IMG/VR virus record: IMGVR_UViG_2778261693_000003 | DNA: 17,858 bases | Direction: 5' to 3' (one strand) | Origin: a virus | Taxonomy: Duplodnaviria; Heunggongvirae; Uroviricota; Caudoviricetes | In this document: piece after piece, positions 10,441 to 15,784 of the stretch | Position numbering within the stretch: the stretch's first letter is position 1 | How the letters are laid out: every line of letters starts with the position of its first letter | The notes under the pieces: model-generated | Told to the model about the DNA's origin: nothing | What the model saw: only the letters and a program-made list of their open reading frames with translations | Database searches by the model: none | Made by a program: the position numbers and the translations under genes

Positions 10441-10731
10441 TTAGTGATTGAGGCCGTTACCGCGTCCGTCGAGAAAAACTTCCACGAGCAAATCACGGGT
10501 ATAAGTGCGCTCGATGCCGCGATGCAGATAAAGCCGTCCGCGTAAATTAGCTGATGCAGTCCAGGTACCATCTTTGTGTTTGACCAGCATGCCTGGCATG
10601 ACCGCACCGCGATTAACGGTCTGCGTTCCGTAATGTTGATGAACCATAAAAACTCCTGCCCGTAAGCTGGGCTGCTGAACATATAGAGACTTCTGCGCGT
10701 ATTCAGGCGGTGGATGGCCGCCGGTTGTCAT
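10441..10731 (-). CDS. Hypothetical protein at the lambda kil position (96 aa; alternative start at 10647 gives 68 aa)
   Basis: First ORF downstream of pL on the leftward strand, ending 76 nt before gam. ATG at 10731 has GAGG 10 nt upstream; ATG at 10647 has AGGAG 5 nt upstream. Sequence is unrelated to lambda Kil as I remember it. Confidence 0.5.
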
Positions 10732-10868
10732 AACTAAGCCGCCTCGTTGAAGCGACTGAGGTATAAAGTGTTGTGTTGATTTCAGCTGGTCACACCGACG
10801 TTCACGCGTCCGTTTCACCCCTCGCACTCCCCGAAGCCTGCTGAAATTCAAACTGCGGATCTAAGCGG

Positions 10869-10920
10869 TCATCGCAACGGTGAAACAGGTGGTTATCGTA
10901 TCGTTGTGTCGTTGCGATGA
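10869..10920 (-). promoter_or_regulatory. Perfect 11-bp inverted repeat (TCATCGCAACG / CGTTGCGATGA) with a 30-nt loop, in the pL leader
   Basis: Read directly from the sequence. Lies just downstream of the putative pL -10 on the leftward transcript; no U-tract follows, so it is not an intrinsic terminator. Confidence 0.5.
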
Positions 10921-10924
10921 ATTT

Positions 10925-10990
10925 ATTTAAAACTATAGTTGTTTTATCGTCAACAACAAAAGTTGTTTTATCGGTTGTTTTTAATATAAC
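10925..10990 (-). promoter_or_regulatory. Putative OL/pL: leftward promoter with an array of GTTGTT/AACAAC operator half-sites
   Basis: Minus strand reads TTGACG, 17 nt, TTAAAT, embedded in repeated AAAACAAC/GTTGTT motifs. A near-identical promoter-operator segment occurs at OR (12469-12504). Confidence 0.55.
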
Positions 10991-11090: not shown

Positions 11091-11119
11091 GGAAAAGAAA
11101 ACCCGGCGCGGTTGCCGGG
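11091..11119 (-). terminator. Rho-independent terminator downstream of the lipoprotein gene (minus strand)
   Basis: Minus strand: stem CCCGGC / loop AACCGC / stem GCCGGG followed by TTTTCTTTTCC, 9 nt after the stop codon. Confidence 0.7.
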
Positions 11120-11127
11120 TATGATTA

Positions 11128-11508
11128 TCAGTCAGCCCAACCTGATTTCGAGTTTATTTGGGTTTCTGACATTGTGTATTTCTTAATCGTGTCATCGTTA
11201 AAAAGAATAGTAAGTTCTTTTTTCGTACCGTTCGTTCCATTATGGAATAATCCATAGAATGGAATAAAAGTGGTGCCATTCACTTTTACTTTTGCAAAGG
11301 CGTACTTCCAGATCTCGTTTCCACTGTCAGTATATGAAACAGCATCAGGAGAACCAAAGTAAGATTTAACCTCATTCTTGGTTGTTTTACCTTCCTGAAG
11401 TTTAGACTGGACACTAATTTCAGTTTCATTTTTGAGTTGCTGGTTGTCTGAAGAAGCACACCCAGCCAATACAGATGCCATCATGGCAGCGATTAGGATT
11501 TTTCTCAT
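11128..11508 (-). CDS. Lipoprotein (lipobox LAGC), 126 aa, at the rexAB/sieB position of the immunity region
   Basis: Signal peptide MRKILIAAMMASVLAGC with a lipobox cysteine. AT-rich gene with a TATAAT hexamer about 15 nt upstream of the ATG and its own terminator. Mature part loosely resembles small BamE/SmpA-OmlA-like lipoproteins. Confidence 0.8.
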   Translation of the reverse strand: MRKILIAAMMASVLAGCASSDNQQLKNETEISVQSKLQEGKTTKNEVKSYFGSPDAVSYTDSGNEIWKYAFAKVKVNGTTFIPFYGLFHNGTNGTKKELTILFNDDTIKKYTMSETQINSKSGWAD

Positions 11509-11737: not shown

Positions 11738-12427
11738 TTAACCATGCTTCCTGTACGTCTGCGGCATGCTTCCAATGACCTTACCGAATATGAACACCCG
11801 GTTCATCTCGTCTTTCTCGATCGGGTCCCACGGCGAGTAGCTCTTGTTATCAGAGATAACCAGCAGCTTATCCTTCATCATTTGAAGACGTTTTACATGG
11901 GCAGTGTCGTCGTACAGAAACGCATAGATGCCATCACCGTCGAAAGATTTAACAGTGATATCAACGAACAGCAGGTCACCTGGTTCGATCGTCCCTGACA
12001 TGCTGTCACCTCGCACGTTAATGATGCGGATATTTTCCGCCTTCCTGCCATCGAACATGTGACGAGCATCGTCAAACGAGTACTCAACCGAGCGTAGAAC
12101 TTCTACAAACTCACGGTTGATTACACCTGGCCCGGCACTGACTTCTATATCAAGAACGTCAATTTTGAAGTATTTGGAATGGCTGACAGTTGATTGTATT
12201 GGTTGCACTGTACTGTCTGACATATTTCCAACGCCAGAAGATAACCATTCTGCGCGTACACCCAAAGCGTTCGCGATCTCCACGATTTTAGTTGTTTGGT
12301 TAGCTTTCCCTGTTTCGATTTTCTGAATAGCAGCCTGGCTAACCCCGACCAAATCCCCAAGCGCCTTTTGTGTAAGGCCTCGCGCTAATCTGGCTTCTTT
12401 AAGTCTTTCTGAGAGTGTTGTTTTCAT
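11738..12427 (-). CDS. cI: cI-type prophage repressor (N-terminal HTH, C-terminal S24 LexA-like peptidase), 229 aa
   Basis: HTH segment LTQKALGDLVGVSQAAIQKIETG, C-terminal autocleavage-domain motifs (VRGDSMSGTIEPGDLLFVD, catalytic Lys in HVKRL). Divergent from cro across an operator region. Confidence 0.88.
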   Translation of the reverse strand: MKTTLSERLKEARLARGLTQKALGDLVGVSQAAIQKIETGKANQTTKIVEIANALGVRAEWLSSGVGNMSDSTVQPIQSTVSHSKYFKIDVLDIEVSAGPGVINREFVEVLRSVEYSFDDARHMFDGRKAENIRIINVRGDSMSGTIEPGDLLFVDITVKSFDGDGIYAFLYDDTAHVKRLQMMKDKLLVISDNKSYSPWDPIEKDEMNRVFIFGKVIGSMPQTYRKHG

Positions 12428-12531
12428 AGATCAAATGTACAACCAAGGTTTTATTTCATCAAACGAAAATGGTTGTTGACTAAAAACAACCATAGTTTTA
12501 ATCTTGATTCGGATTAACCGCGGAGGTTGTT
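12428..12531. promoter_or_regulatory. Putative OR with divergent promoters PRM (leftward, cI) and PR (rightward, cro)
   Basis: 25-bp palindrome ATGGTTGTTGACTAAAAACAACCAT at 12469-12493 overlaps a TTGACT -35 hexamer for PR. On the minus strand, TTGATG, 17 nt, TACATT sits 6 nt from the cI ATG, which has no SD sequence. Confidence 0.55.
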
Positions 12532-12774: not shown

Positions 12775-12787
12775 CGCTCTTTAACAA
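12775..12787 (+). promoter_or_regulatory. boxA-like element CGCTCTTTAACAA
   Basis: Matches the antitermination boxA consensus (GCTCTTTAACAA) and sits at the nutR position just after cro. No convincing boxB hairpin follows. Confidence 0.4.
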
Positions 12788-15384: not shown

Positions 15385-15451
15385 TGAAACAGGTGAGTTG
15401 AGTTCAAACTGTAGTACAATTCTCTCCAGTTTGAACAGGAAAGAATATGCT

Positions 15452-15784
15452 ATGAACCCTTATATTTATCTTGGTGGTGCAATACTTGCAGAGGTCATTG
15501 GTACAACCTTAATGAAGTTTTCAGAAGGTTTTACACGGTTATGGCCATCTGTTGGTACAATTATTTGTTATTGTGCATCATTCTGGTTATTAGCTCAGAC
15601 GCTGGCTTATATTCCTACAGGGATTGCTTATGCTATCTGGTCAGGAGTCGGTATTGTCCTGATTAGCTTACTGTCATGGGGATTTTTCGGCCAACGGCTG
15701 GACCTGCCAGCCATTATAGGCATGATGTTGATTTGTGCCGGTGTGTTGATTATTAATTTATTGTCACGAAGCACACCACATTAA
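15452..15784 (+). CDS. emrE: Small multidrug resistance (SMR) efflux transporter, 110 aa
   Basis: Translation MNPYIYLGGAILAEVIGTTLMKFSEGFTRLWPSVGTIICYCASFWLLAQTLAYIPTGIAYAIWSGVGIVLISLLSWGFFGQRLDLPAIIGMMLICAGVLIINLLSRSTPH is a four-helix SMR protein with the conserved Glu in TM1; matches my memory of EmrE. Confidence 0.92.
   Translation: MNPYIYLGGAILAEVIGTTLMKFSEGFTRLWPSVGTIICYCASFWLLAQTLAYIPTGIAYAIWSGVGIVLISLLSWGFFGQRLDLPAIIGMMLICAGVLIINLLSRSTPH

Follow-up and report, generated by a model that had tools for sequence, protein, structure and literature searches.

The window, which is the whole stretch of 17,858 nucleotides that was analysed, carries a lambdoid prophage adjoining a tRNA gene (5604-5677). 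In the leftward direction, the genes and signals are arranged in the order of a CI-like repressor gene, a BamE-like lipoprotein gene, the promoter pL, a leader of about 270-286 nt, kil, gam, bet, and exo, and the operon continues after exo with several small lambda-like ORFs, a TraR-like gene, DUF4222, xis, and int. The rightward order is a YdaS-type cro, a YdaT/CII-like gene, O, P, and ren. The nearest relatives are viable phages, namely PhiR26_1 with 99% identity, and Turner, 4A7, and Lambda_4C10 with 94-95% identity over the leader and 90-95% over a wider 751-nt region. The features relevant to this study are listed in Table 1.

Table 1. Features of the early control region and the pL operon, with positions in the window.
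Feature	Position	Strand	Details
YdaT/CII-side boxA	12776-12787	plus	perfect rrn-type boxA GCTCTTTAACAA, exact 12-mer, between cro and the YdaT/CII-like gene
CI-like repressor gene	11738-12427	minus	
BamE-like lipoprotein gene	11128-11508	minus	own intrinsic terminator; region including terminator 11092-11508
pL	10925-10953	minus	-35 TTGACG (10953-10948), 17-nt spacer, -10 TTAAAT (10930-10925)
Hairpin SL1	10869-10920	minus	11 perfect bp, 30-nt loop; arms 10920-10910 and 10879-10869
Core stem I	10825-10867	minus	helix a CGCUU/GAGUG, internal loop AGAU/G, helix b CCG/CGG, helix c AGUUUG/CAGGCU, loop AAUUUCAG
Core stem II	10788-10819	minus	helix d GGU/ACC, internal loop, helix e, loop CGUGAA
Core 3' tail	10780-10785	minus	complementary to loop I (10846-10841)
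Cassette hairpin H1	10729-10765	minus	12-bp variable stem, 10760-10749 with 10745-10734
Cassette invariant block	10706-10733	minus	28 nt, TTATGACAACCGGCGGCCATCCACCGCC, with ATG 10731 (MTTGGHPPP)
Cassette hairpin H2	10706-10722	minus	GGCGG-CCAUCCA-CCGCC; never varies
Cassette 3' half	10648-10698	minus	conserved block GCGCAGAAGUCU..GUUC, H4, AGGAG Shine-Dalgarno of kil
kil	10441-10647	minus	68-aa cell-division inhibitor, first gene of the pL operon; PHROG 294, E = 1e-37
Intrinsic terminator	8518-8540	minus	in the pL operon, about 2.3 kb past the core
Strong intrinsic terminator	7927-7945	minus	8-bp stem, then TTTTTATTGTT

Several neighbouring genes are of interest in their own right. The BamE-like gene, located between the repressor gene and pL, occupies the position of lambda rexAB and likely serves in lysogenic conversion or exclusion; in other phages of the group, this slot holds different cargo (an ASCH-domain protein, SIR2). 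In the pR operon, ren is followed by a gene for a small-multidrug-resistance (QacE-like) transporter (15398-15784, plus strand) and by a 508-aa recombinase-family gene (16039-17565, plus strand), both of which are unusual cargo for a nin region. The tRNA gene (plus strand, 72 bits) directly adjoins the integrase gene (5696-6859, minus strand) and is probably that of tRNA-Arg(UCU), because its anticodon loop is CUUCUAA; the site of the prophage is probably an argU-type attachment site, like that of DLP12.

The putative pL that had been pointed out in an earlier note on this DNA is sound, with its two hexamers situated within operator-like repeats (10931-10973) that recur in inverted orientation at pR (12483-12501). 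From the position of pL, transcription would start near A10918. The comparison of homologues indicated that at least 10 different promoter/operator sequences meet the common leader at one nucleotide, which coincides with the inferred +1.

By comparison of lineages, the leader was split into three modules, that is, the 5'-terminal hairpin SL1, a core of about 88 nt (10867-10780, minus strand; about +52 to +139 of the transcript), which is the conserved element, and a cassette at 10765-10648. The core was found in every lineage compared, including type A, to which the window belongs, type C, and types B and D, in which it lies behind phi80/HK639-type promoters. The earlier view of the leader as highly structured did not hold for the whole, as the 286-nt leader gave a z of -0.58 against shuffled sequences, and the stability of the core alone was about that of shuffled sequence as well (z about -0.6 to 0). 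Of the two inverted repeats described in the earlier note, both of which are present, only SL1 was statistically unusual. The energy of this perfect 11-bp repeat was -16.7 kcal/mol compared with -6.1 +/- 2.0 kcal/mol for shuffled sequences (z = -5.4), and none of 200 shuffles was as good. The long-range repeat (10851-10840 against 10787-10777) takes the form of 7 bp, a 1-nt bulge, and 4 bp and is part of the minimum-energy fold, and a 7-bp match within 190 nt is estimated to be about at chance level.

SL1 starts at the inferred transcription start or at most 2 nt from it and is the least conserved part of the leader. Most type A prophages retain 8-11 bp of it; the O157 lineage has another sequence in place of its 5' arm, PhiR26_1 has a mismatch in its stem, and type B largely lacks it, the phi80/HK639-type leaders having a different 5' segment. 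SL1 is a separate lineage-specific hairpin, which most plausibly shields the 5' end or insulates the folding of the core.

For the core, we aligned 22 distinct sequences (alignment A3, in which column n corresponds to window position 10877-n), with stem I in columns 10-52 and stem II in columns 58-89. In the two-stem model, 95.6% of the cells were paired, compared with 30-46% when the 3' partners were slid by 1-3 columns; double-sided changes occurred at five pairs, and none of 500 column shuffles reached the observed covariation score. The helices of stem I were 98-100% paired, with double-sided compensatory changes at column pairs 21-44, 23-42, and 24-41, which represent exchanges of A-U/C-G/G-U, G-C/A-U, and G-C/A-U in helices b and c, and with three single substitutions in helix a, all of which kept the pairing. 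Stem I is joined to stem II by an invariant linker, CGAGG (10824-10820). In stem II, pairs 64-83 and 68-79 covaried, and type B has a different hairpin of equal length at this place. An apparent U/C...A/G covariation at CUUC/GAAA was discarded, as several sequences broke the association and the register was not helical. The independent covariation events are few because the changes come from about four lineages, and the covariation may thus be taken as good, but not overwhelming, support for the two stems. Regarding the earlier suggestion that covariation be checked across related prophages, paired regions are indeed conserved among them, namely the two-stem pairings of the core, whereas SL1 and the long-range repeat did not stand as the functional structure.

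When the 3' tail is left out, which is the situation while transcription is still under way, the minimum-energy fold is the two-stem structure; only with the tail included does the long-range helix become the minimum-energy fold. This helix was paired in 95.9% of the cells over the 22 distinct homologues, with no double-sided change in the full 11-pair helix. It also overlaps both helix c and helix d, and it is in partial competition with stem I. Its centre, in which loop I faces the 3' tail, was 100% paired in A3 with wobble-compatible changes only, and this part is compatible with both stems as a pseudoknot.

The core also bears on the annotation of kil. The Kil protein is most likely the 68-aa form that starts from ATG 10647 with an AGGAG Shine-Dalgarno sequence (10657-10653) upstream, and a 68-aa Kil is also annotated in 4A7, HK225, and O157. 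The kil frame remains open for 68 codons 5' of this ATG, across the cassette and part of the core (10441-10851, minus strand), and a 125-aa "Kil" corresponding to the frame 10851-10441 is found in GenBank PV340555. We rejected the long frame as coding, because stop codons close it in type B. The open frame of the window being stopped by TGA or TAA there, the core is non-coding, and the 125-aa entry, the start of which lies inside the core, is probably an over-extended gene call.

The segment between the core and kil (10765-10648, minus strand; here termed the CATAC cassette) proved to be a separate, widespread structured cassette of about 120 nt that belongs to the downstream gene. It is composed, in this order, of CAUAC, H1, an invariant block with H2, a spacer of variable length, a conserved block, H4, and a Shine-Dalgarno sequence. 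The base of H1, UAUA/UAUG, is invariant, the AUG at 10731 being paired with the invariant CAUA. The hairpin is otherwise extremely variable, with over 40 different sequences seen, and among 18 variants of the same length, compensatory changes were found at five pairs. H4 (10672-10658) is a small covarying hairpin in the form of GCCC/GGGC, GCGC/GCGC, or GCC/GGC. A codon-degenerate scan for MTxGGHPPP detected at least 120 viral loci, almost all of which had the identical 28-nt TTATGACAACCGGCGGCCATCCACCGCC. The cassette precedes different early-left genes, with kil in some loci only, and is also present at about 2500-2640 in both L004 and L005 and in many of the loci L008-L127. In most phages it starts a few nucleotides from the U-tract of an intrinsic terminator; the window and some of the put phages (L236, L300) instead have it immediately behind an antiterminator RNA (put, or the candidate core). 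A search of Rfam at E <= 10 with a terminator-plus-cassette example gave no credible match. The reading frame from ATG 10731 is doubtful as a conventional conserved peptide gene, the conservation being at the nucleotide level and including wobble positions. Because of this nucleotide-level invariance and because the frame and the position of its stop vary past codon 9, a function of the cassette at the RNA level is indicated rather than a peptide gene, and it is possible that the cassette encodes a short polyproline stalling peptide.

Of 5426 complete E. coli genomes, 2210 contained the leader segment at 10766-10925 with an identity of 90-100%, and the core was also found in Trabulsiella, Scandinavium, and Enterobacter genomes. 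It directly follows pL in at least 10 immunity and promoter-operator types, with varying downstream genes, and the phages that bear it include viable ones, grown on K-12 and E. coli C. The covariance model of the core (R1) indicated one copy per phage. Scans of metagenomes and species-representative genomes detected three enterobacterial genomes, a convincing match in a high-GC viral contig (L342, 25 bits), and a weak one in a soil contig (L408). In L342, the linker and the basal part of stem I are preserved (ACCGCUUAGAGCCG...CGGGGAGCGCGAGGG), the apical part is different, stem II is a new one of 7 bp, and the complementarity between loop and tail is absent. Such deep conservation, represented by one or two sequences, would fit a broadly conserved component of the host that recognizes the linker and the base of stem I. 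In Rfam, at the curated gathering scores, a tRNA was the only match in the whole window, and a search with the leader at E <= 10 gave nothing credible, the best sub-threshold matches (E >= 0.44) being to unrelated families. No description of the core was found in the searchable literature.

In lambda, the leftward transcript carries nutL and the N gene at this place, and the earlier note had suggested that no N gene follows here. This was supported by Pfam and PHROG scans of the operon, which detected none; the only ORF before gam, which had been described as having no N-like features, is Kil and matched no N-like family. The complete 4A7 genome carries a Q-like gene with no N annotated, and an O157 prophage has the same N-less layout. 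No boxA (CGCTCTTA or GCTCTTTAACAA-like) was present within 3 mismatches in the pL leader (10640-10925). The loops of the leader are 30, 8, 6, 3, and 7 nt long, and none corresponds to a boxB-type hairpin with a 5-bp stem and a GNRA-like pentaloop. Thus, on comparison with lambda nutL, neither an N homologue nor a boxA-boxB site in the leader was found. The window resembles lambda in that the core is the first cis element after pL and precedes the same recombination module, kil-gam-bet-exo, whereas it differs in lacking an N gene, a boxB hairpin, and a boxA in the leader.

The only perfect boxA is located in the other early operon, downstream of cro, at the position equivalent to nutR and with no obvious boxB. 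A boxA of this type is used in the rrn-type boxA/Nus antitermination of rRNA operons, CRISPR arrays, and suhB, and a role in recruiting host Nus factors to counter Rho is possible for it in the pR operon. Antitermination by host factors only is an established mechanism (PMC5725501, PMC7665894). The boxA is tied to the immunity type of the window, being present in 37 of 46 loci of this type and in 2 of 64 of other types. Because it belongs to the other operon and to one immunity type and is absent from the pL leader, an rrn-type boxA cannot explain the conserved core. The EAR RNA (eps-associated RNA) of Bacillus is a cis-acting RNA with reported processive antitermination of a long operon. The core is similarly a candidate cis-acting antitermination RNA for a long operon; however, EAR belongs to another phylum, operon type, and sequence, and no Rfam family matched the leader at gathering scores.

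To our knowledge, put is the only family of RNAs by which processive antitermination is achieved by RNA alone in phages. Put RNA acts in cis without phage proteins via the beta-prime zinc-binding domain of RNA polymerase, and rpoC mutations block its action. The evidence for put includes genetics, biochemistry, and a cryo-EM structure, with the structural mechanism solved in 2022 (PMC9378689). The first approximately 55 nt of the type B leaders are common with phage HK639, in which the next segment is annotated in GenBank as a "putL-like antiterminator RNA"; the experimental basis for HK639 putL is reportedly the work of King et al. in 2011. The shared 5' flank, GTTAGCCAGCGGnGAAGTGGAG, was found in 112 viral loci, and the element next to it was of the put type in 98, the core in 14, and anything else in none. 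The same 3' flank, a third stem-loop with GCUCUUUG, resumes in many loci of both kinds. The core-bearing locus L312 and the put-bearing HK639 agree in both flanks (promoter-proximal and 3') and in the gene that follows, and the core-bearing L201 and the put-bearing L249 likewise share flanks and downstream gene. Since identical flanks bracket either element, put and the core are interchangeable modules at one fixed site of early leaders that are nearly identical in other respects. It is on this exact positional swap with HK639 putL that a put-like role of the core is based; the swap demonstrates interchangeability and not which function the two elements share.

The third stem-loop (UUUACCAGCAGCUCUUUGCGAGGGGCUGACGGUAAA), which has the boxA-like GCUCUUUG inside, was located at 1640-1700 in L219 (HK639) and at 8470-8535 (minus strand) in L105. 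In phi80/HK639-type leaders it comes after put and the core alike; it lies within the annotated HK639 putL feature and is missing from the type A leader of the window. In the right operon of HK639 (L332, 3911-3970), an "M3-like RNA" is annotated in GenBank after the CII-like gene, where putR might be expected.

Despite the shared site, the core and put are dissimilar in sequence. A covariance model built from 10 put sequences (R2) recognized its positive controls, HK639 putL (107 bits), HK022 putL (87 bits), and HK022 putR (27.6 bits), and at E <= 10 matched neither the window's leader nor any part of the 4A7 genome or the core-bearing loci. Conversely, R1, which was built from the core, did not match HK022 or HK639, and blastn-short indicated no similarity of the leader to HK022 putL. 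As the covariance models fail both ways, the core is not a put homologue. The HK022 comparison proposed earlier was thus supported with respect to position, at which the core is put-like, but not with respect to homology by sequence or covariance model.

The core and the put RNAs of HK639 and HK022 are alike in being non-coding and in belonging to the early leftward transcript of a lambdoid phage that has no N, with cis action being presumed for the core. Both have two stem-loops with internal loops and a length of about 70-90 nt, the two stems of the core spanning 80 nt, and both have terminators downstream. The structural likeness is one of secondary structure, the detailed geometry of put including a triple helix and a V shape. 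The core is the longer of the two and has the additional conserved loop-to-tail complementarity. Its start is near +52 to +66, and that of HK022 putL is at +2/+3 (PMC9378689). HK022 has a second copy, putR, whereas no second, putR-like copy of the core was detected in the window or in the whole 49-kb 4A7 genome. R2 similarly detected no second put copy in HK639 over a region that begins at pL, includes the pR operon, and ends about 4.9 kb past pR. Only putL being annotated and detectable in HK639, putR is not universal in the put family, and the core resembles HK639 putL in occupying the same slot in the left operon only.

The operon downstream of the core contains terminators that an antiterminator could act on. 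The strong terminator at 7945-7927 lies upstream of the TraR-like gene, DUF4222, xis, and int. Among 76 distinct core-bearing loci, a stringent search of the 5 kb behind the core gave one or more intrinsic terminators on the sense strand in 72, and the mean number per locus in the 5 kb was 2.18 on this strand compared with 0.36 on the antisense strand. In one type B example, three terminators were interleaved with genes on the same strand. The proximal genes may not need antitermination, because the first strong terminator of the window is 2.3 kb downstream.

Of the three roles suggested for the leader in the earlier note, the put-like element is the one favoured by these comparisons, although by way of the two local stem-loops of the core and not of SL1 or the long-range repeat; for the RNase III site and the attenuator, the analysis gave no specific support. 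We lean towards the interpretation that the core represents a new, non-homologous class of put-like processive antiterminator RNA, which we infer to bind the polymerase and suppress termination. According to this interpretation, the core would fold co-transcriptionally into its two stem-loops and attach to the very RNA polymerase that transcribes it or to a conserved elongation factor of the host. The polymerase thus bound would resist the intrinsic and Rho-dependent terminators further along the pL operon, so that kil-gam-bet-exo and especially the distal TraR-like gene, xis, and int could be expressed without an N protein.

It is also conceivable, but unlikely, that the core is a nut-like site at which an unrecognized phage-encoded antiterminator protein, analogous to N, is recruited. 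The invariant AGAU, AAUUUCAG, and CGAGG, being single-stranded or internal-loop sequences, would suit sequence-specific binding by a protein, the position just past pL is that of nutL, and a canonical boxA is present in the pR operon of the same immunity type. However, no N-like family was found in the operon scans or annotated in the complete 4A7 genome; the leader is devoid of boxA at the 3-mismatch level, and the core loops of 8 and 6 nt do not represent a boxB pentaloop. In addition, the core accompanies many different immunity and early-gene sets, and in contexts that are otherwise identical, downstream genes included, it is exchanged with put, an element independent of phage proteins. 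An interpretation without any antitermination is that the leader contains elements of mRNA stability or processing, SL1 blocking 5'-end-dependent decay and stem I being an RNase III or RNase E site, which would set the level or timing of kil and the downstream genes. RNase III acts on the lambda N leader, and tight control of the kil dosage is plausible because Kil is toxic; SL1 is very stable and placed at the inferred start, and stem I is an interrupted helix of 14 bp. We nevertheless consider this role improbable. SL1 is the least conserved part of the leader, the invariant loops and linkers and the conservation into a high-GC phage would not be needed, and a processing element would not be expected as the sole alternative to put at one fixed site. 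Typical RNase III substrates are about 20 bp, and the helices here are shorter (SL1, 11 bp; stem I, 14 bp in three segments; H1 with its base, 16 bp).

The competition between the two stems and the long-range helix could in principle constitute a switch, such as an attenuator or a riboswitch-like element, for the next gene. The long-range helix becomes the minimum-energy fold once the tail is transcribed, excluding part of helices c and d, and its complementarity is retained in all enterobacterial homologues. A switch nevertheless seems decidedly unlikely, as the core is followed by neither a terminator nor a partner that sequesters the Shine-Dalgarno sequence, the sequence after it differs by type (the cassette, the third stem-loop, or a small ORF), the long-range helix exhibits no double-sided covariation and is missing in the distant L342, and no Rfam riboswitch or leader family was matched. 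The compactness and structure of the core and its location near a strong early promoter might alternatively suggest that it is released as a stable small RNA acting in trans on host or phage targets, as do prophage anti-sRNAs, and the unrelated leader of kilR in the Rac prophage of K-12 gives an annotated small RNA, KilS. Identity of the core with KilS was rejected, the sequences being unrelated. We regard this possibility as highly unlikely, because in type A no terminator or obvious 3'-end signal follows the core, CACAACACUUUAUACC coming after stem II and the tail, because the core has no similarity to KilS or any Rfam sRNA, and because action in trans would leave the exchange with put unexplained.

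Taken together, the core as a put-like antiterminator RNA and the cassette behind it can be combined in a wider reading, which we put forward tentatively and hold at slightly less than even. The core would then represent an independent class of protein-free, polymerase-binding antiterminator RNA ("put-2"), interchangeable with put as a module, carried in about 40% of sequenced E. coli genomes and with relatives in high-GC proteobacterial phages, and the CATAC cassette would be a further undescribed regulatory RNA of put-type, core-type, and other lambdoid early operons. The antiterminator question is directly testable, because near-isogenic swaps of put and the core exist naturally. If the put-like role of the core is true, a second RNA, dissimilar in sequence to put, would show how differently RNA can reprogramme RNA polymerase, and the core would provide a compact new part for the synthetic control of read-through. 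It would also explain how early genes are expressed in a very common group of N-less lambdoid prophages, which includes the O157 prophages and phages with sit and other cargo genes.
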